Assembly: GCA_022072165.1 (NCBI GenBank) | Contig: JAJVIF010000001.1 | Location: forward strand, 273,353-337,352 | From: a bacterium | GTDB taxonomy: Bacteria; JAJVIF01 | DNA: 64,000 bases | Direction: 5' to 3' | Shown: positions 24,083 through 50,244 of the stretch, in pieces | How positions within the stretch are numbered: position 1 is the stretch's first letter | Layout: each line of letters opens with the position of its first letter | Program-made: the position numbers and the translations under genes | Notes under the pieces: model-generated | What the model was told of the DNA's origin: nothing | What the model saw: only the letters and a program-made list of their open reading frames with translations | The model's database searches: none

Positions 24083-25030
24083 ATGTCCACGCAGACCGCC
24101 AGCCCACTGACAGCTCAGGGAGGACCGTCGATGGCGGGGCGTGTGGTGCTGGAGGAAGGGTTCCTCGCCCGGCTGGAGCGCCTGCATTATCTGACACGGC
24201 TCATGGTGGTGGGAGGGATGCGGGGCGAAAAGAAATCCCGACGTCATGGGTCCAGCATCGAGTTCGCGGACTACCGGGCGTACAGCCGTGGCGACGATCT
24301 GCGGCGGGTGGACTGGAAAGTCTTCGCCCGGACCGATCGCTTCTACACCAAGCTGTTCCACGAAGAAGAGGACCTGACGGTCCATCTGCTGATTGATGCG
24401 TCGGCCAGCATGGCCTACGGGAAACCACAGAAGTTCATGGTGGCGCAGCAGGTCGCGGCCGCGATGGGTTACATCGCAATGGCCAATCTGGAGCGCACCC
24501 GTTTCCGGGTCTTCGGTGACCGGCTCTATGCCAACGATACCGGGTACCTGCGGAGCAAAGGGTCGGTGCACAAAGCCTTCCGTTTCCTGGAGGACCTGGA
24601 GCCGCAGCGGGAAGCCCGTACGGACTTCCGCAAGAGTTTCGAAACGTTCGCTGGACAGACAAAGGGCCAGGGGCTGGTGATCATCCTCTCCGACTTCCTC
24701 GCAGAGGAAGGTCTTGTCGAGGGGCTCAAGCGCATCCTCTACGCTGGTCACCAGATTGTCTGTGTCCAGTTGCTGGATCAGCAGGAGATGGAGCCCGACC
24801 TCCGGGGCGAACTGGAACTGCGGGATGCGGAAGAGGGGACCCTCCGGGAGGTCACGATCTCTCCCCGCCTCCTCCGGATGTATCGCGCCTACCGGGATGC
24901 CTACCTGCAGCAGTTCGAAACCACCTGTCGTCGGCTGGGAATGAGCTACATCCGGGCCCTCACCAGCGAGCCGATGGAAGAGATCGTGTTGCAGGGGCTG
25001 CGTCAAACCCGTCTGGTGGGCCGCGGATGA
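24083..25030 (+). CDS. DUF58 domain protein (MoxR-system partner)
   Basis: 'RRHGSSIEFADYRAYSRGDDLRRVDWKVFARTDRFYTKLFHEEEDLTVHLLIDASASMAYG' is the hallmark DUF58 core (degenerate VWA). Confidence 0.8.
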   Translation: MSTQTASPLTAQGGPSMAGRVVLEEGFLARLERLHYLTRLMVVGGMRGEKKSRRHGSSIEFADYRAYSRGDDLRRVDWKVFARTDRFYTKLFHEEEDLTVHLLIDASASMAYGKPQKFMVAQQVAAAMGYIAMANLERTRFRVFGDRLYANDTGYLRSKGSVHKAFRFLEDLEPQREARTDFRKSFETFAGQTKGQGLVIILSDFLAEEGLVEGLKRILYAGHQIVCVQLLDQQEMEPDLRGELELRDAEEGTLREVTISPRLLRMYRAYRDAYLQQFETTCRRLGMSYIRALTSEPMEEIVLQGLRQTRLVGRG

Positions 25031-26949: not shown

Positions 26950-26995
26950 GCCTGGCAGGTACAGGCGCGATCCCTGACAAAGGAGGGGAGTCCGG

Positions 26996-30022: not shown

Positions 30023-30346
30023 ATGACTGACCAACAGGACCCGCAGCAGCAGCCCGCGCAGGTGAGCTTTGCTCCCCAGGCGCACTCGGTGCTCTACAGC
30101 GACTTCGCCCAGATCACCATCAATCCGCATTCCGCCACGCTTCGCTTCGGCACCCAGGTGCCCGGACGCAACGAGTTTGTGGTGCACACGCAGCTCGCGA
30201 TGCCCCCCCAGGCGCTGGTGGCGTTCGCCAACGCGATCCAGCAGCACCTGCAGGCCATCGCGCAGGCGCAGGCCAACGCCCGGCAGCAGGAAGACTCTGG
30301 TCTCGTGGGGCCGGATGGGCCGATCGATCTGTCGCGCCTGAACTAA
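30023..30346 (+). CDS. DUF3467-like small protein
   Basis: 'YSDFAQITINPHSATLRFG...NEFVVHTQLAMPP' resembles the DUF3467 core. 107 aa. Confidence 0.45.
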   Translation: MTDQQDPQQQPAQVSFAPQAHSVLYSDFAQITINPHSATLRFGTQVPGRNEFVVHTQLAMPPQALVAFANAIQQHLQAIAQAQANARQQEDSGLVGPDGPIDLSRLN

Positions 30347-30376
30347 GCGGATTCCGCGATCTCTGCTCGCTGGTAG

Positions 30377-31333
30377 CTAGGCGGCTCCCGCTACGGGGGC
30401 CGTCGCTGCTTTTTTCGGTCCGCCACTGATGAGCTGCCAGAGGGCCACCGTGACGAGAAAAGCTCCAAACGTCAGCTTCAGATGCGGACTGGAGAGTGAC
30501 TTGAGCAGTAACCCCCCCAGGTAGACTCCGCCGACACTTCCGGGAGCCAGCCAGAGGACTGTCGAGATCTTGCCGGCCTTTTGCTGAAGATATTTGACCG
30601 CGCCCGTAAACACGATCGGGAACATCGCCCCGACCGCATAGCCCTGGGCGTATTTCTGATCGATGTGCAGCAGCTCCGTAAGAACTGGAACCATCACAAC
30701 ATTGCCCCCGATGCCCGTAAAGCCGCTGGCGATGCCGGCGATCGTGCCAGTCCCCAAAAACTCCAGCCCAGTGAGGAGCGTCAGCGGGGTATCGGGCAGA
30801 ATCGGCGCGTGCGCGCCTTCCGCCGCCTGTATCAGGCCCCCCCGGATCATCCAGAAGGCAGCGAAGAGCATGATCAGCGAGAAGATTTTGGTCAGCTTGT
30901 CCAGCGGGAGTTTCAGCGCCCAGCCACTGGAGAGCTGCGCGCCGACCATCCCTCCCGCAGCCATGCAGACGGAGAAGATGACGGCGTTCAGATCCCAGTA
31001 GAGGAGGCGAGGCGTCTGATTCCAGTAATTGAAGAGATTCGCGATGACCAGAATCACTGCCAGGGCGAGGCTGGTTCCCTGGGCCGACCGCTGATCGATA
31101 CGCACAATCCACACCAGCAACGGAATAACCACCACTCCGCCGCCGATCCCCAGCATCCCGCCCATAACACCAGTAATGATGCCCAGCAGCACCAGCAGCC
31201 AGGGCCATTCCCGGGTGCCGGACTGCTGGATGGCAGTGGTTGTTGCTGGTTCCGGTGCGGAGATAGCCGCCTCCTGAGTGATACACTCCCTGCTGCTGCG
31301 GTTGCCCGGCACTGGGCGGTCCGCCACCAGCAC
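30377..31333 (-). CDS. TauE/SafE (DUF81) family anion exporter
   Basis: Two TauE repeats with 'GGMLGIGGGVVVIPLL' and 'GFTGIGGNVVMVPVL' Gly-rich helices. Confidence 0.8.
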   Translation of the reverse strand: MLVADRPVPGNRSSRECITQEAAISAPEPATTTAIQQSGTREWPWLLVLLGIITGVMGGMLGIGGGVVVIPLLVWIVRIDQRSAQGTSLALAVILVIANLFNYWNQTPRLLYWDLNAVIFSVCMAAGGMVGAQLSSGWALKLPLDKLTKIFSLIMLFAAFWMIRGGLIQAAEGAHAPILPDTPLTLLTGLEFLGTGTIAGIASGFTGIGGNVVMVPVLTELLHIDQKYAQGYAVGAMFPIVFTGAVKYLQQKAGKISTVLWLAPGSVGGVYLGGLLLKSLSSPHLKLTFGAFLVTVALWQLISGGPKKAATAPVAGAA

Positions 31334-31377
31334 GCCGCTGCGTCGCTGGCAGTGAGCATAGTACCCGGAGGAACAAC

Positions 31378-31818
31378 ATGCACGTGCGTCAGCTTGGCTG
31401 GCTTGTGACCCTGAGCCTGCTCCTGTTCAGTCTCTTTGGTTGCGACAAACTCTCCAACATCGGGACCAGCGTGGCTGGCAACATCTACAACCGGGGGACC
31501 CCACAGGGTGGTCACATCACCCTCGTGGATTTCGCCACTGGGTCCACCGCCTATCAGGGCCAGAGCCAGGATGGGCACTTCATTATCCAGGATGTCAAAG
31601 CGGGCGAGTACGTCATCCGCTACATGAACATGAACGCCATCCCCATGGGGGGCGGACGGTACATCAAGGTCCTTCCCGGACGCCCGGTCACCGAGATCAA
31701 GTTCGAGATCTGGGAAGTCGTCGGGCCGGACACCAAGGACAAAGAGGGGAACCTCCTGATGACCAAGGAGCAGTTCATGGAAAAGTTCGGGCTCACCGAC
31801 CAGGTCCCCACCGGCTAA
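31378..31818 (+). CDS. Hypothetical lipoprotein (carboxypeptidase-regulatory-like beta-sandwich)
   Basis: Lipobox 'LLFSLFGC'. 'GHFIIQDVKAGEYVIRY' is a CarbopepD_reg-like pattern. Confidence 0.5.
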   Translation: MHVRQLGWLVTLSLLLFSLFGCDKLSNIGTSVAGNIYNRGTPQGGHITLVDFATGSTAYQGQSQDGHFIIQDVKAGEYVIRYMNMNAIPMGGGRYIKVLPGRPVTEIKFEIWEVVGPDTKDKEGNLLMTKEQFMEKFGLTDQVPTG

Positions 31819-34879: not shown

Positions 34880-36085
34880 ATGACCTCTCCGACCCCGACA
34901 CTCAAACTCTCCCGTCGCGTGACAGAAGTCCCGCCGTATCTCTTTGCGGCGATCGACAAAGCCCGCGACGAAGCCAGGGCGAGGGGACTGGATGTCATTT
35001 CGCTTGGCATCGGCGATCCGGACCAGCCGACCCTCGATCCCATCGTTGAAGAGATGCACCGCGCCATCGACCGTCCGGCCAATCACCGGTACCCGGCGTA
35101 CGAAGGCTCAGCGGCGTTCCGGGAGGCGGCGAGTCGCTGGATGGAGCGTCGCTTCGGTGTCCGGCTGGCACCCTGCGAAATCATGGCGCTCATCGGAGCC
35201 AAAGAAGGGATCATGCACTTCTCCCTCGCGGTGCTTGACCCAGGGGATCTCTGTATCGTGCCGGAGCCGAGCTATCCCACTTACCGCACGTCTGCCCAGT
35301 GCGCCGGAGCGGACATCTACGATGTCGCGCTCACCGAGGCCAACGATTTCCAGATTGACCTGGCCTCAATTCCCGAAGAAATCGCCCGACGAGCCACCCT
35401 GATCTGGGTGAACTACCCGAACAATCCCACGACCGCCGTGGCCTCGCGGGACTTTTTCACCGATCTCATCGCCTGGGCCCGCAAGTACGAGGTGATCGTC
35501 GTCAACGACAACGCCTACTCCGAGATCTACTTTGACCCTGCCGACCGGCCCATCTCGATTTTCGAGTTCGAGGGGGCGAAGGATGTCGCGGTGGAGCTGT
35601 ACTCCCTCTCGAAGGGATACAACATGACCGGCTGGCGCATCGGCTGGGCGGCAGGGCGTAAAGAGTTCATGGACGCCCTGGGGGTGATCAAGAGCAACAC
35701 CGACTCGGGCGTCTTCACTGCGATTCAGGAAGCCTCGATGGTCGGACTCGATCTCCCCTTCGAGGCCCAGGATCCCATCCGGCAGCTCTATCGCGAGCGA
35801 CGGGATCGGGTGGTTGCCCGCCTGAGTGCTGCCGGCATCACTTTCTACCCCTGTCGCGGCACCATCTACCTCTGGGGCAAAGTTCCGACCACGGAGAGCA
35901 GTGTGGAGTACGCCTCCCGGCTCCTGGAGCAGACCGGGGTTGTCATCGGCCCGGGGCGTGGTTGGGGTCCGAGCGGGGAGGGCTGGTTCCGGCTCTGCCT
36001 GACGACCGCCGATGACCGGCTGGATGAAGCCGTCGGGCGCATCATTGCAGACCTCGAGCAGTGGCGAGCCGCTCACCCCGGTTAG
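34880..36085 (+). CDS. dapL: LL-diaminopimelate aminotransferase-type class I aminotransferase
   Basis: Class I/II aminotransferase with 'YSLSKGYNMTGWRIGW' (PLP Lys). Directly downstream of dapF, and about 400 aa long. Confidence 0.75.
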   Translation: MTSPTPTLKLSRRVTEVPPYLFAAIDKARDEARARGLDVISLGIGDPDQPTLDPIVEEMHRAIDRPANHRYPAYEGSAAFREAASRWMERRFGVRLAPCEIMALIGAKEGIMHFSLAVLDPGDLCIVPEPSYPTYRTSAQCAGADIYDVALTEANDFQIDLASIPEEIARRATLIWVNYPNNPTTAVASRDFFTDLIAWARKYEVIVVNDNAYSEIYFDPADRPISIFEFEGAKDVAVELYSLSKGYNMTGWRIGWAAGRKEFMDALGVIKSNTDSGVFTAIQEASMVGLDLPFEAQDPIRQLYRERRDRVVARLSAAGITFYPCRGTIYLWGKVPTTESSVEYASRLLEQTGVVIGPGRGWGPSGEGWFRLCLTTADDRLDEAVGRIIADLEQWRAAHPG

Positions 36086-38487
36086 CGAAAGACGGGATAC
36101 CCCTCAAAGTCGTTATCTGTGTTGCTGATATTGATCAGCTGCGACGAGGGCGCGTCTTCGTCATAGACCCAGATGTCCGCGTCGACGATCGAAGGGGATG
36201 TGAGATCCGAAAGGTCCGCTTCCAGGGCGACAAACGCCACTTTGCGACCCGTCCGATTAAAGACCGGCTGAATCGGAATGTACGCCGTGGCTGGGGCGGG
36301 AGGGGTGCCCATCCCCGACAGGTTGATCTCTGTCAGTGCGCCGCTGGAGGCGTTCACAAAGGCCAGCTTGAAGCTCCGGGGCAGGTTCAGCAGATTGACA
36401 TCAATGTAGGTGCAGACCAGCCGGGTCCCATCGGGTGACCAGTCGGGATAGAACACGCCGCGGGTGGTTGATGAGTCCGCGATGGTCGTGAGCTTCGTAA
36501 AGCTGGACCCCGGGTTCTGTGGGTCGAACGTGTAGAGGTTGCCGTTCGCCCGGAGCGGCGGCAGCGCAGCGCTGGCGGAAATGCCGGTGCCCGATGAAAT
36601 CACGGCCCGGTCACTACGCGAGGGATCCCAGTCCGGACCCGCCAGGTCCGCGAAGAGGCGTTCTCCCTGGATGGTTAGTCCAGGCAGTCCCCGGGGGACG
36701 CCGCTGAATGTGCCGAGCTTCAGGCCGGTCAGGAAATCGCCGACCACCAGCTCTGGAGCGAGACCCGCTTCCAGTGCCAGGAACGGATGCGCTCCCGGAT
36801 ACCCGCTGCTGGGCAATTGTCCGATACTGGGGTGCAGATAAAACGTGTCTTGCAGCGGACGAGGAATCCGTCGGAATGGATGACTCTGCTGAATCCCGGA
36901 GCGATCAAGCGAGTTCAGATCCCCAGCTGGCCCGATCAGCATCAGTTGCCGCGCTTGTGGGCCTACGAACTCGGCAAAAGCAGTACCGAAGACCACACCC
37001 ATACTCCCCGGAACGACCTCACGAAATGGCAACAACTGGACCAGCCTCGTGGTGCCGCCGCCGAGCAGCGTCGCGGTCGATGTCGCCAAGAGCACCTCAT
37101 TGCTGTCCGGTCCTGCCCCGCCTTTGATCAGCTGGTAGCTCCGGATGGGAACCGCACGCTCCGCGCTCGGGAGCAGGGTGCCCGGCTCGACCCCGAAGCG
37201 ATAGTTCGCTGCCTGCGGATCGCTGTCTTCGGGGTCGATGACTCGCACCAGCCCATAGCTGTTCCCAGCGCCAACGGTAAATTCTGACGTTATCGTCCCG
37301 GAATACCGCAAAGGCGTCAGCGGACCACCATCGCCCGCCACATGTGTCAGTTGCTGTGGGGTAGAGGTCAGTCCGTCAAGAAAGACCTCCACGACGGGCA
37401 CACCGCTTGCCCCTGGCTGCACCAGCTGTACGTCTGTTTCATCGCTGAGATTGGCATCGCCTGCTTCCTGCGCGAAGGTGTCCCAGTCGCGGATGGCGGT
37501 GACAAAGGTGGCAGTGGATCCGGCATTAAGCCCAATCTCAGTCATCCCAGGCACGATCACCTGCGACACATCAAGGGCGTTGTAGGGGAGGCGATAGGCG
37601 AAGAGCAACGGATCGCCGGATTCGGCAGGGAAGCGGCGCGTGATCCCCCCTTCACCGCGGGGGTCGGTCCACTTGGCGAGGAGGGCAAAGGTCAGCGTCC
37701 AGGGGACCGCAATCCCCGGACCTTCCAGCAGCAGGACCCCTTCGGTCTGCTGCCCGCCATGCAGATAGTCATAGCCGGTCCAGCCGATGTTTTCCGCGCC
37801 GATGTTGCTGCGCTGCCAGCCGCCACCATCCCCATCATAGGAACCGGTCATGAGTCCCTCATTGCTGACATTGGCGCGCGAGTCGTATGCCTCGTTCACC
37901 AGCAGCCAGGCCGGGAAGAGGTCCCCGGGATTGATGAAATTTTGCGGCGGCACAGGCACGAGCCCCTCAATCTCCACATACGCATCCGGCAGAAGGGCAC
38001 CATCATTACGGACTCCCTGACCATCGTAGGTGCCGATTTGATCTTTGGAAATCAGGACGAGATACCCCGTGTACCCCAGGTCGGCTCGATTTTTCCCACT
38101 GATGGGGGCCTCGAAGTTTGGCGCCGGGAACGGGTGCGCGTGACGCCATTCGAGAAGCAACGAACCTGCCGGACCCCGCCGGACACTGGTGATGCGGAAA
38201 TCAACCGGTTTCACGAACGGGCTGATGTCGATCTGATAGCTCAGCGCTTGCGGCGGCTGGGCCGCCAGGAGCCGGGAGGGCTCCACCTGTGCACTGAGTG
38301 ACAGCGGGTCGATGGTGACATTAAACATCCCGATGGTGGCGAGATCAGTCCGGACCTGGGATTCCGGAACGTGCTGGGGCACCGATGGCAGCCGGTTTCC
38401 TGCCTGGCAGGCGAACAGCATCCAGGGAAGCGTGAGCAGCCCCAGCTTCAGGGACCACTGCGAGTAAAAGAGGGGATTGGCGGCCAT
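36082..38487 (-). CDS. Large secreted lipoprotein with C-terminal PD40/TolB-like beta-propeller repeat (start uncertain, 38487-38592)
   Basis: 'LLTLPWMLFAC' lipobox. C-terminal 'DWSPDGTRLV' PD40 repeat. No other recognisable domain. Confidence 0.5.
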   Translation of the reverse strand: MAANPLFYSQWSLKLGLLTLPWMLFACQAGNRLPSVPQHVPESQVRTDLATIGMFNVTIDPLSLSAQVEPSRLLAAQPPQALSYQIDISPFVKPVDFRITSVRRGPAGSLLLEWRHAHPFPAPNFEAPISGKNRADLGYTGYLVLISKDQIGTYDGQGVRNDGALLPDAYVEIEGLVPVPPQNFINPGDLFPAWLLVNEAYDSRANVSNEGLMTGSYDGDGGGWQRSNIGAENIGWTGYDYLHGGQQTEGVLLLEGPGIAVPWTLTFALLAKWTDPRGEGGITRRFPAESGDPLLFAYRLPYNALDVSQVIVPGMTEIGLNAGSTATFVTAIRDWDTFAQEAGDANLSDETDVQLVQPGASGVPVVEVFLDGLTSTPQQLTHVAGDGGPLTPLRYSGTITSEFTVGAGNSYGLVRVIDPEDSDPQAANYRFGVEPGTLLPSAERAVPIRSYQLIKGGAGPDSNEVLLATSTATLLGGGTTRLVQLLPFREVVPGSMGVVFGTAFAEFVGPQARQLMLIGPAGDLNSLDRSGIQQSHPFRRIPRPLQDTFYLHPSIGQLPSSGYPGAHPFLALEAGLAPELVVGDFLTGLKLGTFSGVPRGLPGLTIQGERLFADLAGPDWDPSRSDRAVISSGTGISASAALPPLRANGNLYTFDPQNPGSSFTKLTTIADSSTTRGVFYPDWSPDGTRLVCTYIDVNLLNLPRSFKLAFVNASSGALTEINLSGMGTPPAPATAYIPIQPVFNRTGRKVAFVALEADLSDLTSPSIVDADIWVYDEDAPSSQLINISNTDNDFEGYPVFR

Positions 38488-38602
38488 GGCGACGTCCTCG
38501 TGCAGGAGATGCCAGAGATTGTAGGCCCCCGGAGCACCCCCGAGACATTGATTCGACATTCTGTCGGCTGGCACCATTGCGGTACGCTTCATCGCGCATC
38601 CT

Positions 38603-39628
38603 ATGGCCACGACTCGCACCGCCCCGGCTCCCGCCCCCAGTCCGCTCCCTGTCGCTGAGCGCGAGGCGTCGCCCTGTCTCGACATCTCGGTCGTCATTCC
38701 GCTGCGCAACGAAGAGGGGTCGCTCCGGGAATTGCATCGGCAGCTCAGCGAGGTCCTCGGAGCGTCGGGGCTCACATTCGAGCTGCTCTTCATTGATGAC
38801 GGGTCCGACGACGGTAGCGACACCATCCTGCGGGATTTGCACCGTACCGATGACCGGGTCACCGTCGTGACCCTGCGTCGTAACTTCGGCAAAGCGCAGG
38901 CTCTGGCGACCGGCTTTGATCTGGCTCGCGGACGCATCATCCTGACCATCGATGCGGACCTGCAGGACGATCCTCACGAAATCCCTGAGTTCCTGAAGAC
39001 CCTGGACACCGGTTACGACCTCGTGGTGGGCTGGAAACGCCGTCGCCGCGACCGGGTCACCCGGGTCCTGGCGAGCCGGGTGTTTAACCTCGTGAACCGG
39101 GTCTGCTTTGGGTTGCCTTTGCACGACATGAACTGCGGCTTTAAGGCCATCCGACGGGAGGTCTTAGGCGAACTGGGGCTCTACGGCGAGTTGCATCGGT
39201 ACATCCCCATCTATGCGCACGCCCGGGGCTTTCGGGTCACGGAGATCCCGGTCCTGCATCATCCGCGGAAGCACGGACGCAGCAAGTACGGACTGGAGCG
39301 GTACCTCCGCGGATTCTTCGACTTCCTCACCAGTCTGCTCCTGACCCGCTTCGCGAAGCGGCCGCTGCACTTTTTTGGCGGCGTGGGGTTCACCGTAGGG
39401 ACCATCGGGCTCGCGATCTGTATCGTGCTGACCCTGCAATGGCTCCGGGGCAACACCGCGCTGTCCGAGCGCCCGCTGCTCATCCTTGGGGTGATGCTCA
39501 TCATTCTGGGGGTCCAGACCATCTCCATCGGACTGGTCGGGGAAATGCTGATTCATCGCGAAGAAACCCGCAGCACTCAGGGCCAGCATCCGATCCGGGC
39601 GTTGCTGCGCCGGGCCGCTGTCAGCTGA
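38603..39628 (+). CDS. GT2 polyprenol-phosphate glycosyltransferase (ArnC/GtrB/DPM1-like) with C-terminal TM helices
   Basis: 'ISVVIPLRNEEGSL...FIDDGSDDGS', DAD motif 'TIDADLQDDP', and two C-terminal TM segments typical of ArnC/GtrB. Confidence 0.85.
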   Translation: MATTRTAPAPAPSPLPVAEREASPCLDISVVIPLRNEEGSLRELHRQLSEVLGASGLTFELLFIDDGSDDGSDTILRDLHRTDDRVTVVTLRRNFGKAQALATGFDLARGRIILTIDADLQDDPHEIPEFLKTLDTGYDLVVGWKRRRRDRVTRVLASRVFNLVNRVCFGLPLHDMNCGFKAIRREVLGELGLYGELHRYIPIYAHARGFRVTEIPVLHHPRKHGRSKYGLERYLRGFFDFLTSLLLTRFAKRPLHFFGGVGFTVGTIGLAICIVLTLQWLRGNTALSERPLLILGVMLIILGVQTISIGLVGEMLIHREETRSTQGQHPIRALLRRAAVS

Positions 39629-39632: not shown

Positions 39633-40478
39633 GTGGCTGCTGCACCGCTCCCCCTCGCGATATGCCTCGTTACCTGGAATCACTGGGCAGACACCGCCGA
39701 GTGTCTCGCTTCCCTAAAGGCCGCAGATTGCGATCCTCCCCCTGAGGTTTGGGTGGTCGACAACCAGTCTGCCGATGACACAGTTGAGCGCATCCGCCAC
39801 GAATTTCCTGACATCCGACTTCTGGAGAACGCCTGGAACGCCGGATTTGCGGTCGCCATGAATCAGGCCCTGGGTGCGGTGCTGGCAGCGACCCCAGCTG
39901 ACCAGGACCGGCTGATCCTGTTGTTAAACAACGACACCCTGCTCGCCACCTCCTGCCTGACCCAACTCACCACCGGGTTGGAATCGCAGCCCGTCGCCGG
40001 GATCGCAGCCCCCACGATCTACTACCACGCATCCCCGGAACAGGTCTGGTATGCCGGCGGGGGCCTTGATTCGGTGCGCTGTCGCGCCTGGCACGAGGGG
40101 CTCCGGACAGTCGCAGCACCGTCAGGGCCACCGACACCTACGGGCTATGCCACCGGGTGTGCACTCCTGGTGCGGGCCAGCGTCCTGCGCCAGGTGGGGC
40201 TCCTCGATGAGGGGTACTTCATGTACTGGGAGGATGCCGATCTCTGCTGTCGCGCCAGAGCGGCAGGCTGGGAAGTCCTGTGGATTCCCGAGGCCCGTCT
40301 CTGGCACAAAGTCTCCACCTCCACGGGTGGCAACCTGGCTCCACGGAAACTCTGGCGAAAGTTCGCCAGTGGCTGGCGATTCTGGTCGCGATGGCATGAG
40401 CGTCCCCTCTGGCCCCTCGCGTACCTGCAGACTTCGTGGCAGGACTTCCAGCGTGCGCGACAGGCGACCGCAGGATGA
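39633..40478 (+). CDS. Family 2 glycosyltransferase
   Basis: 'ICLVTWNHWADTAECLASL', 'VVDNQSADDT', and the 'YWEDADLCCRA' GT2 motif. Confidence 0.8.
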   Translation: MAAAPLPLAICLVTWNHWADTAECLASLKAADCDPPPEVWVVDNQSADDTVERIRHEFPDIRLLENAWNAGFAVAMNQALGAVLAATPADQDRLILLLNNDTLLATSCLTQLTTGLESQPVAGIAAPTIYYHASPEQVWYAGGGLDSVRCRAWHEGLRTVAAPSGPPTPTGYATGCALLVRASVLRQVGLLDEGYFMYWEDADLCCRARAAGWEVLWIPEARLWHKVSTSTGGNLAPRKLWRKFASGWRFWSRWHERPLWPLAYLQTSWQDFQRARQATAG

Positions 40479-40482
40479 CCCC

Positions 40483-41841
40483 ATGACCGCACCGCTCAAC
40501 GTGCTCCTCGTGACCTATGCCTTCCCACCCCGGGGGGGAGTCGCGGTTCAGCGGGTCCTCTCCTGGGCGCGGCACCTGCCAGCGCATGGCATTCGGCTTA
40601 CGGTCCTGACGGCCACGCCGCCGCTGGGAACCGTTCAGGCCGACACGTCCCTGCTGACGGAGGTACCGGACGACGTACGGGTTATCCGGACCCCATCGCT
40701 GGAGCCCTACCGGCTCTACCGCGCGCTGGGAGGGAAGCGAGCCCAGGATGATCCTCGTCAGCGCGCGACACAAGTTGCAGGATCGAGACAACAAGGGGGA
40801 GTAGGGGAGCGAATCTATCGCTGGGTGCAGGAGCGCTGGCTGGTCCCGGACCCGAAAATCGGATGGTTCCCCTTCGCGCTGGAAGCCGCAAGGGGACTGC
40901 AAGAGGAAGGCTATCGCCCCGATGTCGTTCTTGCTACGCAGCCGCCGGCGACTGCCCTGGTGATCGGTGATGCCCTCGCCCAGCGCTGGAAGGCGCCCCT
41001 GGTGGTGGACTACCGGGACCCCTGGAACAGTGGGTACTACCCGCTGGATCGACCACCAGCTGTCGCGGACCGGGAGATCGCCCTGGAGCGCCGGGTGCTC
41101 CAGCGTGCAGCTGCGGTCGTGACGGTCTCCGCCAGCTTCGCCGAAAAGCTTTCTAGATTAGTACAAGATGATTCAGGTTTAATGGAGAAACTGGCGCTTA
41201 TTGAGAACGGTTATGATCCTATTTTTGGTGAAAACATAGAGTCAATTGGGGAAAACAGGCCAGTGCTCCTACACGCTGGATCGCTCTATGCCCAGCGTTC
41301 CCCGGAGCCCTTCTTCGCTGCCCTGCGTGCACTGACAACCGAGGATCCTGCCCTGACCGCTGACTGGACCCTGCGGCTGCAAGGGAATGTCGCGCCGGAT
41401 TATCTTCGCGATGCCGAGGCGACTGGTGTCCGCGTGCAATTCGACGGCTTCGTGAGCCATCGCGATGCCCTCCTGGCGCAGCGGCAGGCTGAGATTCTGC
41501 TCCTTTTTACCGAGGGGATGCTCACCGCCAAGGTCTACGAGTATCTGGCAGCGCGCCGACCGATCCTCGCCATCGGTCCTGCGCCAGATCTGGACGCGCT
41601 CCTGCAGTCCTGGGGAGCTGGTCGCTGTTACGACCCTGCAGACAATAAGGGGATCCGGGACGCCCTCAAAACGCTGATGCAGCACCGAAATGCGACGGGG
41701 CAGACAGCTCCGCTCTCGCTCCACAAAGACCTCGCCACGATTCAACGGTCGGCATTAGCGGGCGATCTCGCCAGACTCCTCTACCGGGTGGCCGGCCGGC
41801 CAGCACCGGTGCACACGTATACTCCCTCATCCCATGCCTGA
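40483..41841 (+). CDS. Family 4 (GT-B) glycosyltransferase
   Basis: N-terminal 'VLLVTYAFPPRGGVAVQRV' and C-terminal 'E(X7)E'-type retaining GT-B region 'AEILLLFTEGMLTAKVYEYLAARRPIL'. The listed ORF 40051.. is an out-of-frame upstream extension. Confidence 0.75.
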   Translation: MTAPLNVLLVTYAFPPRGGVAVQRVLSWARHLPAHGIRLTVLTATPPLGTVQADTSLLTEVPDDVRVIRTPSLEPYRLYRALGGKRAQDDPRQRATQVAGSRQQGGVGERIYRWVQERWLVPDPKIGWFPFALEAARGLQEEGYRPDVVLATQPPATALVIGDALAQRWKAPLVVDYRDPWNSGYYPLDRPPAVADREIALERRVLQRAAAVVTVSASFAEKLSRLVQDDSGLMEKLALIENGYDPIFGENIESIGENRPVLLHAGSLYAQRSPEPFFAALRALTTEDPALTADWTLRLQGNVAPDYLRDAEATGVRVQFDGFVSHRDALLAQRQAEILLLFTEGMLTAKVYEYLAARRPILAIGPAPDLDALLQSWGAGRCYDPADNKGIRDALKTLMQHRNATGQTAPLSLHKDLATIQRSALAGDLARLLYRVAGRPAPVHTYTPSSHA

Positions 41842-44251
41842 ACCCCCCGTCACGACAGGGGGAGACCCGGAGTCCCATCGCGAGGACCCGGCGTCTCAGA
41901 CTGCTCCTGCTCCGGACTCCACATCGCCGTCGAACGCCGCCGCCGGTGACCCGGGGATCGGGATGGTGCGGGATTCTGTCCAGACCTTTCTCGCGCAGCT
42001 GGTTTCCATCGTCGTTGCGATCGTCTCCTCCGTCCTGCTTGGGCGGACCCTCCTTCCCACCGGAAAAGGACTCTTTTCCATCCTCATTCTGATTCCCAAG
42101 AGTGCCTGGACCTTCGGCACGCTGGGTCTCGATCAGGTCAACACCGTCTACGCCGGCCGCGACCCGGAGCGTCGGCATGAACTCGCCACGACCAGCCTGT
42201 TTCTCGGCATGGCGATTTCGATTCTTGCCTGTCTGCTGGTGGCGATTTTCCTCTACTGGCCCGGACGCGGCGCGGCCAGGGTCGACATCCAGCCTGGGGA
42301 TTTCCTGGTCGCAATCGATGGCGTACCGGTCGCGCCAGGCTCTCTCGAACCCCTGGCCTACACCCCCTTTGGCCGGGAGGTACCGGTCACGATCTGGCGG
42401 CAGGGGACCTTGCTGGAGCGGAGCATCCCGGCTGAAGCGGTTGATGGACCATTCGCCATCGAGCAGGAGTTCCGGCTCTCGGCCCTGAATACCTGGCGGT
42501 TTGGCCTGACCGTCAACCCGCTCTTTAGCCAGCAATACTGGGTTCCCGCGCTGAATGCCGGACTGGTGCCTTTGACTCAGGAGCACTGGGATGAACTCGC
42601 AGCCCGCCGCGAGGCCGGGCTCCTGCCATCGGACATCCCGTTCCCTGATCCGCAGCCCGCCTATCTGGTGGGTGATGTCGGCGAAAGTGGGCGGCTGGAA
42701 CGCCTCCGCGGCGAAAGACCGTCCGCCACTGACCTGCGTCGGGGCGATGTCATCCTCGCCATGAACGGCGCACCCCTGCGACCCGTGCTGATGGATGTCG
42801 CGCCGGAAGTGCCTCGTGGTGGGTCGCTGACATTGACCGTGTTTCGGCAGGGAGCATCGGTGGACATCACGGTGACTCCTGAAGCTACCGCAGGCTCCCC
42901 GGAACCACGGGGACTGCAACTTTCGCAGCCCGGACTCCGGGAATTGGGCCTGTTGAAAAATCTGCACTGGCAGGAGCAGCAGTACTTTCCAGCAAGCGGC
43001 ATCGCGGTGGCGTTTATGACCCCGGATCGACAGCAGGATCTGCGTTTGCGGGCTGGACTTCCCGGGGTCTTCGCGGTCGGCACGACAGTCCCGGATGGCC
43101 CCGCCGCCCTGGTCTGCCAGGTGGATTACCCCTGGTTGCGGCGGTGGTCCCAGGACCTGCCCCGCAATCTTTTCATGCTGACCATGCTCTTTTTTCCGCT
43201 CACCGCTGCGGCGTACCTTATGGACAGCATCCTGTATGGCCTCAATCTGATTCGCCTGCGCAATCAGAAAGCGGTCATCACCAACATCGTGCTGGCGCTG
43301 CTCTACTTTTTCGGGCTCTATCTCTATGGTCATCAGCATCTCGCCCTTACCCCCCGGAGCGCGGAGGGGCTGCTCCAGCTCATTGAGATTGCAGTCTGGA
43401 TCACCCTGATTCATGGAGCGTTCATCGCGCTCTACTCCTGGTACCTCATCGCCCCCCGGGCGAAATTTGCCCGTAAGTTTCTCAATCTGCCCTACGTCTT
43501 CGACTGCTTCCGGCACATCGGCTGGCAGTCCTATGTCGCCAACTCGGCGTCGTACCTCTTTTACGACGTCGACATCTTCATCATCACGTCCATCATCGCG
43601 CACGGCACTACGACCCTGACGCTCGACAATCTGGGGAACTACACGCAGGCGACCAACATCGTGGAGCGGGTCTGGATTGTCCCCGGGGCCATCGCCACCG
43701 CATTGCTCCCGAAGCTCACAAACTTTGGAGTGGCGAAGGCGGGGGAACTGACACCCAAGGGGATCCGCCACACACTGATTCTCACCATCGCAATTCTGGT
43801 TCCCCTCTGTATCGTGATGCCGTGGCTGATCCCGGTGCTCTGGGGACCGGAGTTCCTGCCGACTTTGAGCCCGTTCTATCTGTTGGCTCCTGGCATCCTG
43901 CTCTTCTCGTTGAGCAAGGTCTACTCGGCACACTTACTCGGCATCGCCAAGCCGGTGTACGCCATGTGGTACTCGATCCTGGCAGTCATCGTGAACGTGG
44001 TGATGAACTACCTGCTCATCCCGCAGGAAGCCATCGTCATGGGCGTCGCGATTGGTGGGATCAACGGCGCGGCGATCGCCTCGACTGTCGCGTATTCTCT
44101 GCATTCGTTTCTCATGCTCTCGGCGTACTGCAAAGAAGCACAGACCACACCAGCGCAAATCTTCCGATTCACCAAAGATGACTGGTACCTCTATGTACGC
44201 GGGGCGCAGGCTGGCATCAGCATTGTCCGGAAGCTCCTGCGATGGTCCTAA
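41834..44251 (+). CDS. Wzx/PST-family oligosaccharide flippase with ~330-aa inserted PDZ-domain region
   Basis: N-terminal three TM helices and C-terminal about nine TM helices match the polysaccharide-biosynthesis (Wzx/MurJ-like) flippase pattern. Between them are 'GDFLVAIDGVPV...PVTIWRQG' and 'GDVILAMNGAPL...LTLTVFRQGASVDITV' PDZ-like modules. Confidence 0.65.
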   Translation: MPEPPVTTGGDPESHREDPASQTAPAPDSTSPSNAAAGDPGIGMVRDSVQTFLAQLVSIVVAIVSSVLLGRTLLPTGKGLFSILILIPKSAWTFGTLGLDQVNTVYAGRDPERRHELATTSLFLGMAISILACLLVAIFLYWPGRGAARVDIQPGDFLVAIDGVPVAPGSLEPLAYTPFGREVPVTIWRQGTLLERSIPAEAVDGPFAIEQEFRLSALNTWRFGLTVNPLFSQQYWVPALNAGLVPLTQEHWDELAARREAGLLPSDIPFPDPQPAYLVGDVGESGRLERLRGERPSATDLRRGDVILAMNGAPLRPVLMDVAPEVPRGGSLTLTVFRQGASVDITVTPEATAGSPEPRGLQLSQPGLRELGLLKNLHWQEQQYFPASGIAVAFMTPDRQQDLRLRAGLPGVFAVGTTVPDGPAALVCQVDYPWLRRWSQDLPRNLFMLTMLFFPLTAAAYLMDSILYGLNLIRLRNQKAVITNIVLALLYFFGLYLYGHQHLALTPRSAEGLLQLIEIAVWITLIHGAFIALYSWYLIAPRAKFARKFLNLPYVFDCFRHIGWQSYVANSASYLFYDVDIFIITSIIAHGTTTLTLDNLGNYTQATNIVERVWIVPGAIATALLPKLTNFGVAKAGELTPKGIRHTLILTIAILVPLCIVMPWLIPVLWGPEFLPTLSPFYLLAPGILLFSLSKVYSAHLLGIAKPVYAMWYSILAVIVNVVMNYLLIPQEAIVMGVAIGGINGAAIASTVAYSLHSFLMLSAYCKEAQTTPAQIFRFTKDDWYLYVRGAQAGISIVRKLLRWS

Positions 44252-45261
44252 GTCGGAACAGGAAGCTCAGCCGGGCTGACTGGCCGCACTACGGGCTTCC
44301 CGTCCGCTGACAGTTCTGACCCCATCACAAATTCCCGATTGGCCATTAGCCCGGTTCGGATGGGATGCTGGCTCGCGCCAATCCGGGCCAGCTTGCCAAA
44401 CCGCAGGACCCCCGCCTTGATGCGGAGCGTGGCGTCGAGGGAGCGAAAGGTGGAACGGGCCGCCCGGACTCCATAATGCTTTGCCAGATACTGGAAGGCT
44501 GACCGGAAAAAGCGCTCATGCACCACGATCTGCGCGGCTTCATCGTTGCCCGATGAGCCGCCCCCTTCGTGCATCGCCACAATGTCAGGATGCACCATCA
44601 CTTTCCAGTGGGTTTGATGACACCGGGTTGCCCAGTCGGTCTCCTCGAAGTACAGAAAGAAGCGTTCATCAAACGGTCCCACCTCCTCCCACGCGGACCG
44701 TCGCAAGAACCACATCGCTCCACAGGGATAGCCCACCTCGAAGGGCTGGTCCGTACCAGGAGCCAGGCCTCGACCCAGATCCCAGGCCGGGTTGGCCAAA
44801 AGACGCCGGAGTCCGGAGTAGGCGAACCAGAGTTTGAACGGGGACGGCAGAGCCCCGTAGACCAGCTCGGAGGTACCGCGTGGATTCAGGAGATTGCCCC
44901 CGACCAGTCCGACCTCCGGAGTGGCATCCAGATACGCGCAGGCGCGTTGCAATGTTTCGGGTCGCAGCTCCAAATCCGGGTTGAGTATCCCCAGGTAGTC
45001 GCCGCCGACATTCCGGGCGATGGTATTGACCCCCCCGGCATACCCCACGTTGTCGGGGCGGGCGATGAGCCGGAAAGGAGCCCCCGGCCAGCGTTCTGCC
45101 AGATAGGCTGCCGTGCCATCTGGCGAAGCGTTATCTACCACCACCAGATCCACGCCCGGCTCCGCTTCCATCGCCCGGAAGACCGATTCCAGACAGCGAT
45201 CAATGTGTCGCCGGGAGTTGTACGTGATGATCCCCAGCCCAAGCCGGGTGTTGCTGTTCAC
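44248..45261 (-). CDS. Family 2 glycosyltransferase
   Basis: 'GIITYNSRRHIDRCLESV', 'VVDNASPDGT', 'FFLYFEETDWATR'. Convergent with the flippase, with a 4-bp overlap. Confidence 0.8.
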   Translation of the reverse strand: MNSNTRLGLGIITYNSRRHIDRCLESVFRAMEAEPGVDLVVVDNASPDGTAAYLAERWPGAPFRLIARPDNVGYAGGVNTIARNVGGDYLGILNPDLELRPETLQRACAYLDATPEVGLVGGNLLNPRGTSELVYGALPSPFKLWFAYSGLRRLLANPAWDLGRGLAPGTDQPFEVGYPCGAMWFLRRSAWEEVGPFDERFFLYFEETDWATRCHQTHWKVMVHPDIVAMHEGGGSSGNDEAAQIVVHERFFRSAFQYLAKHYGVRAARSTFRSLDATLRIKAGVLRFGKLARIGASQHPIRTGLMANREFVMGSELSADGKPVVRPVSPAELPVPT

Positions 45262-47036: not shown

Positions 47037-48473
47037 CTACTCTGCGGCCTTCCGCTTCCTGGCCCTGTAGCTCACCCGAATGGGGCTGCCTGGGAGTTGC
47101 AGGGTCTCATGCAGCGCTTTGTAGAGATAGCGACGCCAGGAGTCGACAAAGAGCACCGGATTGTTCACCGAAAGCACGATGTGGGGCGGCGAGACCCCCA
47201 CTTGCGTGGCGTAGTAAATCTTCCCGCGCCGATTCCGCCAGACCGCCGGCGGGTTCTGATCCCAGATGGCCCCGACGATGCCGTTGAGCTCGCTGGTCCC
47301 TATCCGCTTGTTGAATGATTCATGCGACTTCCTGATGGCGATCAGGAGGTCGGTCAGACCCTCCCCCTCCAGCGCCGAGGCAAACACTACCGGCGCAAAG
47401 AAAAGGTAGTGCAGCTGGTCGTGGATATGGCTGATGAAGGCCTGCTGATGCTTCGACTTCCCCTCGGACAAATCCCACTTGTTCGCCACAATGACGCATG
47501 CCCGGTGACTGTCCCTGATCAGTGCGCCGATTTTCTGATCAAGATCGGTAATCCCCAGCGAGACATCCAGCACCAGGACCGCGACATCGGCCCGGGTCAA
47601 AGCCTGCTCCGCCCGACGCATGGAGTAGAAGTCGACATCGGTGTCGATCTTGTTCCGACGCTTCAGCCCCGCGGTATCAATCGAGCAGAACTCCCGGCCC
47701 TTCCACTCGAACCGCGCATCGATCGCATCCCGGGTCGTCCCGGCCAGGGGCGAGACGATCGCTCGTTCGCTTCCCACCAGCTGATTGAACAGGCTCGACT
47801 TCCCGGCATTCTGGCGCCCCAAAATAGCGAAGGTCAGGGCCGTCTCTTCGGCGGGGACGGAGTCCGCTGGGGCCTCAGTGGCTTCCTCCATCGTCTGGTG
47901 CAGGAACGGCTGGGTCGCTTCGAGGAGTTCGACAATCCCCCGGCCATGGATCGCGCTGATCGGCCAGGGATCGCCGAATCCCAGCTCGTAGCAGTCGTAC
48001 AGCATGTCGTCATGGAGCGGATCATCGGCCTTGTTGGCGATCAGCAGGATCGGTGTCCGGTCCCGTAACGTGCGGAGGCGCTGGGCAAGCTGCTTGTCCT
48101 CGGACGTGATACCCGCCTGACGATCCACCACAAACCAGATGACATCGGCCTCCCGCAGGGCTAAATCAATCTGCCGGTTCATTTCCTCGCGGAAAGGATT
48201 TTCCCCCGCTGCTTCCCAGCCTGCCTGGTCAGTGAGGGCAAAGTAAACCCCTTCCCAGTCAGCGGTCCGCTTCAGACGGTCCCGGGTGACCCCCCGGGCT
48301 TCATGGACAATCGCTTCCCGACCCCCAATCACCCGGTTGAAAAGGGTGCTTTTCCCAACATTGGTCCGGCCCAGGATCACCACCTGGGGCAGGTCTTCGG
48401 GGGCTGGACGCTCCCCGGACGGATTCGGACGAGTCGGGGGAGCCAGCTTTGGGGCGGAACGTGCGCGTGCCAT
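47037..48473 (-). CDS. der: Ribosome biogenesis GTPase Der (EngA), tandem GTPase domains + KH-like C-terminus
   Basis: G1 motifs 'GRTNVGKST' and 'GRQNAGKSS'; 'DTAG' twice. Confidence 0.9.
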   Translation of the reverse strand: MARARSAPKLAPPTRPNPSGERPAPEDLPQVVILGRTNVGKSTLFNRVIGGREAIVHEARGVTRDRLKRTADWEGVYFALTDQAGWEAAGENPFREEMNRQIDLALREADVIWFVVDRQAGITSEDKQLAQRLRTLRDRTPILLIANKADDPLHDDMLYDCYELGFGDPWPISAIHGRGIVELLEATQPFLHQTMEEATEAPADSVPAEETALTFAILGRQNAGKSSLFNQLVGSERAIVSPLAGTTRDAIDARFEWKGREFCSIDTAGLKRRNKIDTDVDFYSMRRAEQALTRADVAVLVLDVSLGITDLDQKIGALIRDSHRACVIVANKWDLSEGKSKHQQAFISHIHDQLHYLFFAPVVFASALEGEGLTDLLIAIRKSHESFNKRIGTSELNGIVGAIWDQNPPAVWRNRRGKIYYATQVGVSPPHIVLSVNNPVLFVDSWRRYLYKALHETLQLPGSPIRVSYRARKRKAAE

Positions 48474-48651
48474 ACCCCCATTGTGCGCCACGAAGCAACG
48501 AAGGGGTAGTTTCTCCAGATGCTGTTTCAGTACCAGACTTTCCTGCTGGATAATGCCCTCAGGGTCAACCAGGACCGCGGCGAAGCGCTCTTAGAGGCTG
48601 AACGCGCCCTGGCAGCCGGGCGTATTTACGCGTCAACACGAGGAGCCACCC

Positions 48652-50244
48652 ATGAGTCTGCGGACCGTCCAGACAGGTCACACCCGCCACCCGCTCTATC
48701 CCCTGTTCCTGGGCATTTTCGGAATTCTCTGTGTGATCGCAGGCGTCATCTTCGCCGCGGAGTTCCGTCCACCCAATCCAGCTTATGCCGATGAGCCCGA
48801 AGCGCTGACCCTGCAGACTGCGGTCAACGTGCCCGGCAACTTCACCAACAACCCCTTCCGGGAAGTCGTGCGGCAGGTGAAGCCCGCGGTCGTCAACATC
48901 GAAACGGACCGCAAAGTCGCTGCTGGCTCGCGCAATCAGAACCCCTTCGGCGACCTGCCGTTCCAGTTCGGACCGCCGCAGCGGCCGGAGGCGAAACCTT
49001 TTGGCGATGAGCCCGAAACTGTCCCGACCGGAGGTTCCGGCTTCATCGTGGACCCCAGGGGCTACATCATCACGAACAACCACGTCATCGAGGAAGCCGT
49101 TCGGATTCGGGTCACGCTGGATGATGGACGGGTCCTGGATGCCGATATCGTCGGACGGGACCCCAACACTGATGTGGCGGTCCTGAAGCTAAAAAATCCC
49201 AAAGGGACCCTGCCGTTCCTGAAGCTGGGTGACAGCGATGTCGCCGAAATCGGCGACTGGGTCATCGCAGTTGGCAGCCCCCTGGGGCTTTCGCAGTCAG
49301 TCACCGTCGGTGTGGTAAGCGCCAAGAACCGTAATTCGGTCAACATCCCTGGTGCGGGAGCCAAGTACAGCGATTTCATCCAGACCGATGCCGCGATTAA
49401 CTTCGGCAACTCCGGCGGCCCGCTGCTGACCATCGATGGCACCGTACTCGGCATGAACACCGCCATCGCTGGCGGACAGGGTGTCAGCGGGATTGGATTC
49501 GCGGTCCCGGCGAACAAGATCAAGTTCGTCTACGACAACCTCATTCGCGAGGGAGTCGTTCGACGGGGCTACATCGGCCTGCTCGTCCAGCCAGTTTCGC
49601 TGAATGAAGCGAAAGCCAATGGCCTGGAAATCGCCAAGGGCGCAACCGTCGCCCGGGTCGAGCCCAAAGCCCCCGCTGAGCGAGCCGGCCTGGAATTCGG
49701 CGACCTCATCACCCACGTCGATGGCATCGAAGTCCAGAACAACCAGCATCTGGTGAATCTCATCGCGGAAAAAGGCGTCGGAGTCACCATCAAGCTCAAA
49801 GTACTGCGCGATGGCAAGCCACTGGAAAAGACCCTCCGCACCGAACAGCGTCCCGATGAGCTGGATCAGGCGCAGCCCGCGTCTACCCCAGGCGCAGCCC
49901 CCGATGATGAGGCTCCCCCGCGGGAAGCCACCCTCATCCTCCAGGACCTCGGGCTCCAGCTGAGCGAGATCGATCCCGCCCTGAGTCGGCGACTCGATCT
50001 GCCCGCTGGTACGACCGGCGTCTATGTCGAGGCCGTGAAGCGAACCTCGCCTGCTCATGACGAAGGATTTGCGGAAGGCGACATCATCACCCACATCGAC
50101 CGAACCGCTATCACTGGGCTCGCCGGTTTCGAGGACACCCTCAGGCAGGCGGGATCGGGGACTGGCTTTGCCCGACTTACCGTCAAGCGCCTGCTGCGGG
50201 GCGAGTGGGTAAGCTTCCCCTTCCGGCTCCCAGTCGAGCAGTAG
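48652..50244 (+). CDS. HtrA/DegP-family serine endoprotease with two PDZ domains
   Basis: N-terminal TM anchor. Catalytic triad context 'ITNNHV', 'DVAVLK', 'GNSGGPL'. Two C-terminal PDZ domains. Confidence 0.9.
   Translation: MSLRTVQTGHTRHPLYPLFLGIFGILCVIAGVIFAAEFRPPNPAYADEPEALTLQTAVNVPGNFTNNPFREVVRQVKPAVVNIETDRKVAAGSRNQNPFGDLPFQFGPPQRPEAKPFGDEPETVPTGGSGFIVDPRGYIITNNHVIEEAVRIRVTLDDGRVLDADIVGRDPNTDVAVLKLKNPKGTLPFLKLGDSDVAEIGDWVIAVGSPLGLSQSVTVGVVSAKNRNSVNIPGAGAKYSDFIQTDAAINFGNSGGPLLTIDGTVLGMNTAIAGGQGVSGIGFAVPANKIKFVYDNLIREGVVRRGYIGLLVQPVSLNEAKANGLEIAKGATVARVEPKAPAERAGLEFGDLITHVDGIEVQNNQHLVNLIAEKGVGVTIKLKVLRDGKPLEKTLRTEQRPDELDQAQPASTPGAAPDDEAPPREATLILQDLGLQLSEIDPALSRRLDLPAGTTGVYVEAVKRTSPAHDEGFAEGDIITHIDRTAITGLAGFEDTLRQAGSGTGFARLTVKRLLRGEWVSFPFRLPVEQ

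Follow-up and report, generated by a model that had tools for sequence, protein, structure and literature searches.

Can a flippase for lipid-linked glycans carry a protein-interaction module of its own at the point where the cargo leaves, and what would such a module do there? The question is raised by a gene on the forward strand (41834..44251) of a 64,000-nucleotide stretch of bacterial DNA, hereafter the window (GenBank assembly GCA_022072165.1, contig JAJVIF010000001.1, positions 273,353 to 337,352). Its product of 805 amino acids is predicted to be a MOP-superfamily transporter of the PST/Wzx type that is interrupted outside the cytoplasm by a block with PDZ fold, an arrangement to which a preliminary description made from the sequence had drawn attention. 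It is poorly understood how Wzx proteins select their cargo and how, once outside the membrane, this cargo is handed over to the enzyme that acts next, and we know of no dedicated extracytoplasmic interaction domain in flippases of this type.

The open reading frame (ORF) runs without interruption through its 805 codons, the coordinates given above including the stop codon. A search of 5.8 billion proteins returned six full-length homologues at 54-100% identity and one fragment, and the soluble block is found in all of them. The six full-length proteins stem from separate JGI, ENA and Logan assemblies and share both the domain architecture and the gene order of their contigs, namely dapF, an aminotransferase gene, sometimes a large lipoprotein gene, two family-2 glycosyltransferase (GT2) genes, a family-4 glycosyltransferase (GT4) gene, the flippase gene, a convergent GT2 gene and gpsA. 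Since reading frame, domain order and synteny are conserved in these six independent homologues, a frameshift or an assembly join, against which the preliminary description had cautioned, can be ruled out. The opposite strand of the gene carries an ORF of 755 amino acids, which is the usual by-product of DNA with a guanine-cytosine (GC) content of 60-65%. Two start codons are both plausible, because the ATG at 41834 overlaps the stop codon of the GT4 gene by 8 nucleotides (ATGCCTGA) while the conserved protein begins at M44, encoded by the ATG at 41963 with GGGGA ahead of it. The intervening residues 1-43 (41834..41962, +) form a Pro/Ala-rich, poorly conserved N-terminal extension that may not be translated (23-41% identity, compared with 68-94% for transmembrane (TM) helices 1-3; predicted local distance difference test (pLDDT) score <50).

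Assignment of the protein to the PST family is supported by profile homology and by its predicted fold. When a profile of the PDZ-flippase family was scored against 1.84 billion representative proteins, 9302 relatives were retrieved, the best of which, after the family's own cluster and fragments, are ordinary proteins of about 440 amino acids. Most of the relatives that were scanned bear Polysacc_synt, Polysacc_synt_3 and/or MurJ Pfam domains, with P0009 (E 3e-85) and P0010 (E 8e-63) among those that score above cut-off on PF01943 or PF13440. Hydropathy and an AlphaFold2 (AF2) model of the full-length protein (pLDDT 71.7, predicted template modelling score (pTM) 0.72) both give 12 TM helices, three ahead of the soluble block and nine behind it, as the preliminary description had supposed when it proposed a PST/Wzx-type flippase. 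Foldseek comparison of this model with the PDB returned MurJ, MATE and the lipid III flippase WzxE as top matches at a probability of 1.00 (E 2e-5 to 1e-3, target-normalised TM-score 0.46-0.54). TM1-TM3 of the N-lobe (residues 44-141; 41963..42256, +) include the conserved R71...K78 motif 'GR.L.P.GKG', recognised earlier as 'GR.LLP...G', and R71, K78 and about 40 further positions of the core do not vary between relatives with and without the insert. TM4-TM12 and a cytoplasmic tail follow behind the block (residues 444-805; 43163..44248, +) and show a positive-inside pattern: Lys and Arg gather in the even-numbered loops (2-3, 6-7, 8-9) and the tail, and the odd-numbered loops contain hardly any of them, a distribution that predicts cytoplasmic termini and an extracytoplasmic TM3-TM4 loop and fits the standard N-in, C-in topology. 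NCBIfam models gave a weak MATE match at residues 681-784, and the other matches of the protein, to MamE and DegP, were weak too.

The position of the block becomes evident from relatives that lack it. It occupies residues 142-443 between TM3 and TM4 and replaces an outer loop that is 8-11 residues long without insert; the preliminary description had thus placed it correctly, though its size is about 300 rather than about 330 residues. In BLASTP the closest insert-less relative, P0009 (465 amino acids), aligns through its residues 1-93 with residues 44-136 of the window protein (38% identity) and through its residues 105-462 with residues 433-800 (34% identity), so that about 11 residues of P0009 stand opposite about 296 residues of the window protein. 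The locus of P0009, from a distant lineage, reads miaA, dapF, aminotransferase, GT2, GT2, GT4, flippase, extra GT4 and convergent GT2. All eight genes that were compared (miaA, dapF, aminotransferase, the first GT2 (GT2a), the second (GT2b), GT4, flippase and the convergent GT2 (GT2c)) match their positional counterparts there at 34-54% identity, and the flippases are therefore orthologues. The gene for P0009 lies at 8001-9398 of locus L004 and is also present in L005 and L006; the extra GT4 directly downstream of it has no counterpart in the window. The PDZ block has been gained in, or retained only by, the lineage of the window.

That the block holds a PDZ fold was confirmed both by profile comparison and by modelling. 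Within the insert, the Pfam models PDZ_6 (29.9 bits, cut-off 27, E 4.7e-7) and PDZ (26.4 bits, cut-off 23.2) match above their cut-offs, and PDZ_2 reaches 18.7 bits against a cut-off of 27. A family profile compared with the PDB matched PDZ domains of the RseP family and of DegP/DegQ at E values of 1e-7 to 1e-5. An AF2 model of the insert alone (pLDDT 81, pTM 0.73) has PDZ domains exclusively as its structural matches, the PDZ domain of HtrA2 among them with a TM-score of 0.72 over 116 alignment columns. By hydropathy and AF2 the block is soluble and does not consist of additional TM helices. A recent capture of this sequence from the organism's own HtrA was considered and rejected, as the two show a generic match only (25% identity over 63 residues).

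A unit of about 140 residues is duplicated in tandem to make up the insert: in hhalign, residues 146-283 align with 295-431 at a probability of 99.8% (E 1.2e-27, 136 columns). Each unit consists of a PDZ C-half (a short aA helix, a 'GD.I..i.G' strand, helix aB and two strands ending 'R.G'), a conserved linker and an HtrA-type PDZ N-half (a hydrophobic-Gly-hydrophobic strand, the helix 'T.e.w.dL..R' and the strand 'PA.LV.qV'), and the half-domains follow one another along the insert in the order C1-N2-C2-N3. Two PDZ-like modules and possibly a third partial one had been suspected from the sequence; both motifs quoted for them are the C-halves of the two units, and the partial module is real in that it corresponds to the orphan N-half N3, but the count is four half-PDZ segments rather than two and a half domains.

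C1 (residues 143-200; 42260..42433, +), made up of the aA helix, a GDFLVAIDG strand, the aB helix and two strands, begins only about 4 residues past TM3; the Pfam PDZ_6 and PDZ matches lie in it at 143-195, it matches RseP and DegP in the PDB, and it has pLDDT values of 88-95 in the insert-only model. The linker L1 that follows (residues 201-232; 42434..42529, +) is conserved and structured, with a strand at 209-212, a helix at 217-222 and the invariant residues F213, S216, L218, W221, G224 and P229. Its homologue L2 (residues 351-379; 42884..42970, +), likewise conserved, has a strand at 357-360 and a helix at 366-370, and L361, R369, L373, N376 and W379 are invariant. Between the two linkers, N2 and C2 stand contiguously in HtrA order (residues 233-350; 42530..42883, +), and the 'AGLVPL' loop of N2, which contains the invariant G243, resembles a carboxylate-binding loop. 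N3 (residues 380-431; 42971..43126, +) comprises a strand, the 'SGIAVAF' strand, a helix and the 'ALVCQV' strand, is homologous to N2 in hhalign and has pLDDT values of 81-92 in the insert-only model. The chain then returns to the membrane through a nearly invariant amphipathic connector into TM4, 'YPWLRRWSQDLP' (residues 432-443; 43127..43162, +), with a short helix at 434-437 and Y432, L435, R436, W438, D441 and P443 invariant.

The structural matches show one complete PDZ fold. Since sequential aligners can match an HtrA-order PDZ nearly completely only where an N-half stands directly ahead of a C-half, for which N2+C2 is the only place, this fold can be assigned with some probability to about residues 233-350 as the distal PDZ. 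By elimination, C1 and N3 would pair as a second, proximal PDZ that is split around the rest of the module. This pairing is further favoured because both halves are modelled with high confidence (pLDDT 81-95), because fused Pfam scores are better and because the junction resembles that of HtrA. When N3 was fused ahead of C1, every Pfam PDZ score rose relative to C1 alone (PDZ_6 from 25.4 to 29.8 bits, PDZ_2 from 15.3 to 21.7 bits) and coverage of the profiles was extended backwards by 9-13 positions, for PDZ_2 to 12-76 from 25-77. The junction created in this way, 'ALVCQV-D' continued by 'PGRGAARVDIQPGDFLVAIDG', was compared by eye with 'GATVARVEPKAPAERAGLEFGDLITHVDG' at the same place in the organism's own HtrA and appears to read as a normal strand-to-aA connection of HtrA PDZ domains. 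If C1 and N3 do pair, the proximal PDZ would be opened in one loop and tethered to TM3 by about 4 residues and to TM4 by the connector of about 12, and the distal PDZ would hang between the original termini of the proximal one on the two homologous, conserved linkers. In HtrA-type PDZ domains the carboxylate of a peptide ligand is held by a hydrophobic-Gly-hydrophobic loop. Such a loop is kept in both N-halves of the insert, as '(A/C/L/I)G(L/F/V/A)' at 242-244 and '(S/T/L)G(I/L/M)' at 388-390, and G243 and G389 are invariant in 7/7 sequences. Their correspondence to the 'YIGL' that the organism's own HtrA has was judged by eye, since MAFFT mis-aligned the N-halves when the PDZ units were aligned with the PDZ of the window HtrA.

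The cargo of the transporter can be approached through its operon, for which a GT2/GT2/GT4 context had been described and is confirmed here, with the convergent GT2 downstream in addition. The first gene, GT2a (38603..39628, +), matches the NCBIfam model ArnC over nearly its full length (E 1.6e-51, under the equivalog cut-off), followed by PgfS (E 4.7e-40) and AglJ (E 3.7e-26). On the grounds of the near full-length ArnC match and two C-terminal TM helices (260-278 and 286-304) it is classified as a polyprenyl-phosphate glycosyltransferase of the ArnC/GtrB/PgfS/AglJ-like type. GT2b (39633..40478, +) is a rhamnosyltransferase-like member of family 2 and is followed by the GT4 (40475..41841, +), the start of which is approximate: an ORF of 596 amino acids at 40051-41841(+) would overlap GT2b by about 430 nucleotides, and the true start is probably near 40475 because the orthologues have 440-460 amino acids. 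GT2c (44248..45261, -) adjoins the flippase gene in the insert-bearing as well as the insert-less lineage. Neither the scanned ORFs of the window nor the Pfam annotations of the related loci include a phosphoglycosyl transferase, a polymerase (Wzy), a Wzz chain-length regulator, a ligase or a GT-C.

Taken together, we consider it fairly probable that the protein is a working flippase for a polyprenyl-phosphate-linked oligosaccharide and that it uses the PDZ pair on its outside to bind an extracytoplasmic partner by a peptide, so that the hand-over of the glycan is coupled or controlled. The architecture deserves much more confidence than this statement as a whole and the role of the PDZ domains much less, and we infer the class of substrate as well as the ligand and function of the PDZ pair. 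In this scheme, the GT2a-type enzyme and the three further glycosyltransferases would build a short oligosaccharide on polyprenyl phosphate, which the flippase, with its 12 TM helices and cytoplasmic termini, would export. In the lineage of the window, the short outer loop between TM3 and TM4 would have been replaced by a module of about 300 residues, a circularly permuted PDZ unit of about 140 residues in tandem duplication, whose four halves would fold into two PDZ domains of HtrA/RseP type, the distal one from N2+C2 and the proximal one from C1+N3. Because the tethers to the tops of TM3 and TM4 are short (about 4 and 12 residues), the proximal PDZ would sit rigidly on the outer face of the N-lobe. 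As the likeliest mechanism, the pair would capture, at the exit of the flippase, a peptide that an extracytoplasmic partner presents as a C-terminus or as a beta-strand. A glycan acceptor, a transferase or a regulator would be candidates for this partner, and the capture would couple, or allosterically control, the release of the flipped glycolipid. Peptide capture is favoured because both PDZ domains keep the hydrophobic-Gly-hydrophobic loop, a signature of peptide-binding PDZ domains. A docking site for the C-terminus of a partner, as first suggested in the preliminary description, is plausible, and a steric gate of the kind seen in RseP is just as live an alternative for the role of the pair. 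A more specific version, which we regard as speculative and rather doubtful, would be a ligand-gated or acceptor-coupled MOP flippase, of which we know no description. In it, a specific extracytoplasmic peptide bound to the PDZ domains seated on TM3/TM4 would switch glycolipid export allosterically or couple it physically. Such a peptide might come from the C-terminus of the glycan-receiving protein or enzyme, or from C-termini exposed by envelope damage, as in DegS.

Several points weigh against the proposal of a peptide-controlled flippase. The window protein itself has no Pfam match to Polysacc_synt (PF01943), Polysacc_synt_3 (PF13440) or Polysacc_synt_C even at E <= 10 and none to MurJ (PF03023), so that of the Pfam assignments anticipated for it those to PDZ were borne out and those to flippase families were not; its orthologue P0003 reaches 27.0 bits on a Polysacc_synt-type model with a cut-off of 28.2, and precomputed tables assign PF01943 to P0003 and P0005. 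The alignments behind both AF2 models contained 7 sequences only, and sequence logic and confidence scores are the basis on which C1 is paired with N3 and the PDZ pair is placed with respect to the transport cavity. In the distal PDZ, the aA region (286-297) shows poor conservation and was modelled with low confidence, for which reason canonical peptide binding may be beyond this domain. Any partner for docking is hypothetical, no gene for a ligand or partner having been found in the scanned ORFs or in the Pfam annotations of the related loci. In favour of the proposal, the insert is maintained as a functional part of the protein. It is free of stops and frameshifts in all four orthologous genes that were read at the DNA level, and across the homologues its identity amounts to 39-60%, compared with 68-94% in TM1-3 and 63-83% in TM4-12. 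The ratio of nonsynonymous to synonymous substitution rates (dN/dS, Nei-Gojobori) lies at about 0.22-0.43 in the insert, that of the membrane core at about 0.12-0.25, values that are rough as dS is near saturation. The insert is therefore kept by purifying selection, if less tightly than the transporter.

The main rival explanation, to which we give a clearly lower probability than to the proposal as a whole, is that the PDZ pair recruits no partner and instead caps the outward cavity as a steric gate or size filter, much as the periplasmic PDZ tandem of the site-2 protease RseP covers an active site embedded in the membrane. It would then govern which molecules enter or leave the transport pathway, so that, for instance, bulky or incomplete substrates would be excluded or back-flipping stopped. 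The best match of the insert among solved structures is indeed the PDZ tandem of an RseP-family protein (aq_1964, E 1.3e-7), and as in RseP a PDZ pair in the outer loop between TM helices is followed by an amphipathic connector ('YPWLRRW'). The PDZ tandem of RseP has been described as a size-exclusion filter with the amphiphilic helix H1 behind it (PMC7728848). The very short tethers to TM3 and TM4 would also suit a rigid cap better than a flexible fishing line. However, a passive lid has no need of the hydrophobic-Gly-hydrophobic loops with invariant Gly that are kept in both PDZ domains, the RseP PDZ domains are permuted differently and only about 20-27% identical to the insert, and TM3-TM4 belongs to the N-lobe, from where the module may or may not reach over the central cavity. 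An RseP-like protease can be rejected altogether, as the protein has no HExxH motif anywhere and no Peptidase_M50 (PF02163) match.

Considerably less probable is a repurposed transporter, in which the membrane domain would have ceased to flip glycolipid and would serve mainly as an anchor or sensor scaffold for an extracytoplasmic PDZ module. The task of that module would be signalling or quality control of the envelope, for instance as an adaptor of the nearby HtrA protease. The failure of the window protein to reach the Pfam flippase thresholds could be read in this way, bacterial PDZ domains occur mostly in envelope proteases, and at a distance of 4.4 kb downstream of the flippase gene the window encodes a serine protease of HtrA/DegP type that has PDZ domains (48652-50244, +). 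Against this, no part of the protein is better conserved than the TM core, which has the identities (63-94% overall) and low dN/dS given above and retains those residues that do not vary among insert-less flippases. The operon with its four glycosyltransferases, which stand in the same order around the insert-less orthologue, also offers no other candidate for a flippase, while the HtrA gene lies outside the conserved locus and the resemblance of its PDZ to the insert (25% identity) is generic. Even less credit can be given to a lipid II flippase, that is, to the MurJ equivalent of the lineage, tied by the PDZ module to cell-wall synthases. The locus directly follows dapF and the aminotransferase gene in both lineages, several insert-less relatives score on the MurJ Pfam model too, and MurJ structures are the top fold matches, but the protein has 12 TM helices where MurJ has 14, Polysacc_synt or Polysacc_synt_3 gives most of the scanned relatives a better score than MurJ does, and lipid II would not require the four co-transcribed glycosyltransferases with their polyprenyl-phosphate enzyme. 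An artefact in which a frameshift, a chimeric assembly or a fused gene call joined a flippase to an unrelated PDZ gene is practically negligible, given the same continuous frame and domain order in six full-length homologues from independent samples and assemblers, the resumption of flippase sequence on the far side of the insert and the even GC content along the whole gene.

The proposed flippase with a peptide-binding outer module combines features of several known systems. With Wzx/PST flippases such as WzxE (PDB 9g9n) it shares the two-lobe MOP fold of 12 TM helices, the basic motif at the TM1-TM2 turn and a gene within a glycosyltransferase operon, and its nearest relatives (E down to 1e-85) are ordinary PST proteins of 430-465 amino acids. 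It differs from them by about 300 extra extracytoplasmic residues between TM3 and TM4, by missing the Pfam thresholds and by a locus in whose scanned ORFs phosphoglycosyl transferase, Wzy and Wzz are absent. RseP and other site-2 proteases likewise carry two PDZ domains in an outer loop of a polytopic membrane protein, with circularly permuted strand order and an amphipathic connector back to the membrane. In contrast to them, the window protein has no metalloprotease domain, its PDZ units are permuted at another point, the chain being opened behind the 'V..V' strand and ahead of the aA helix, and these units have about 140 amino acids with an HtrA-type N-half helix, compared with about 90 in RseP. 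Unlike the PDZ domains of HtrA, DegP and DegS, the insert has no attached protease, its aA region is long and variable, and its second PDZ would be split around the whole module. Accessory domains on a MOP flippase have a precedent in mycobacterial MurJ (MviN), which, according to work by Gee et al. in 2012, reportedly carries a C-terminal pseudokinase, an extra TM helix and a carbohydrate-binding-like domain. These accessory domains are regulatory and include an extracytoplasmic one, but they are C-terminal, not of PDZ type and not inside the transporter core. The logic of the operon would be parallel to that of the Agl pathway of Haloferax volcanii, where a tetrasaccharide assembled by AglJ together with three other transferases is carried by dolichol phosphate and is then thought to be flipped by a Wzx-like protein (PMC3871713). 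Both would have an AglJ/ArnC/GtrB-related GT2 that charges a polyprenyl monophosphate, further glycosyltransferases and a Wzx-like MOP flippase (AglR/Agl15 being the candidate in the archaeon), whereas the present locus is bacterial, shows no oligosaccharyltransferase and has a chemistry deduced by analogy, and the archaeal flippases lack a PDZ module.

If this proposal holds, the protein would be a natural flippase with a hard-wired protein-interaction module at its exit. The insert-less orthologue in the same conserved locus offers a ready-made comparison and, should the ligand-gated version be true, the two would form a natural pair for dissecting cargo hand-over. The insertion itself would be of an unusual kind and relevant to protein evolution and engineering, a PDZ having been opened in a loop, stitched into a transporter loop and duplicated in such a way that one PDZ nests in the other. 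A practical limit is that the host is an uncultured, deep-branching lineage.

This lineage is barely sampled. The Der GTPase encoded in the window (47037-48491, -) has five relatives only at 58-96% identity among the 5.8 billion proteins, the next-best being <=44% identical and coming from metagenome-assembled genomes of Armatimonadota, Bacillota and Anaerolineae. The PDZ-flippase family is absent from the GTDB species genomes that were searched, and a scan of JGI metagenome contigs with the insert returned only one contig, which was already known. Given the few relatives of Der and the scarcity of the family in databases, the rarity of the protein therefore reflects that of the lineage, to whose core gene set the flippase gene seems to belong. 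A word-indexed search with the insert alignment gave only weak matches to HtrA and S2P PDZ domains (E >= 4.5e-7) and neither a donor protein nor an intermediate with a single unit. Among the 150 best-scoring relatives, the insert occurs in the family's own cluster only, the other full-length proteins being too short for it. The literature on PDZ domains with Wzx, flippases or MOP transporters yielded nothing relevant, in line with the earlier remark that no such chimera had been described, and a PDZ-bearing MOP flippase thus seems, as far as this literature and these 150 relatives go, to be found nowhere else. Accessory domains do occur on related PST flippases, but at the C-terminus; the two longer relatives that were scanned, P0105 (666 amino acids) and P0133 (602 amino acids), are C-terminal fusions to a Bac_transf phosphoglycosyl transferase and a GNAT acetyltransferase.

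Divergent from the glycosyltransferase operon lies a gene listed as an ORF of 955 amino acids (36082-38949, -), for which M154 (38490) is the probable start and which would then encode a lipoprotein of 802 amino acids with the lipobox 'LFAC'. It has a PD40-like 'DWSPDG' motif near its C-terminus and no Pfam or NCBIfam match. Equivalents of 757 and 790 amino acids are found at the same place in loci L001 and L007, and none in L003 or the insert-less L004. As an obligate partner of the PDZ domains this lipoprotein is unsupported, because L003 keeps the PDZ insert without it. Elsewhere in the window, sizeable ORFs without Pfam match are located at 14046-15593(+), 30120-31379(-) and 11369-12874(-); the second of these (419 amino acids) is rich in Arg, Ala, Gly and Pro, has no hydrophobic segments and looks like a high-GC artefact. 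Unrelated to the flippase, a run of DUF58, BatA-VWA and VWA-GATase1-like genes at 24083-29956(+) resembles an operon of the aerotolerance type (Bat).

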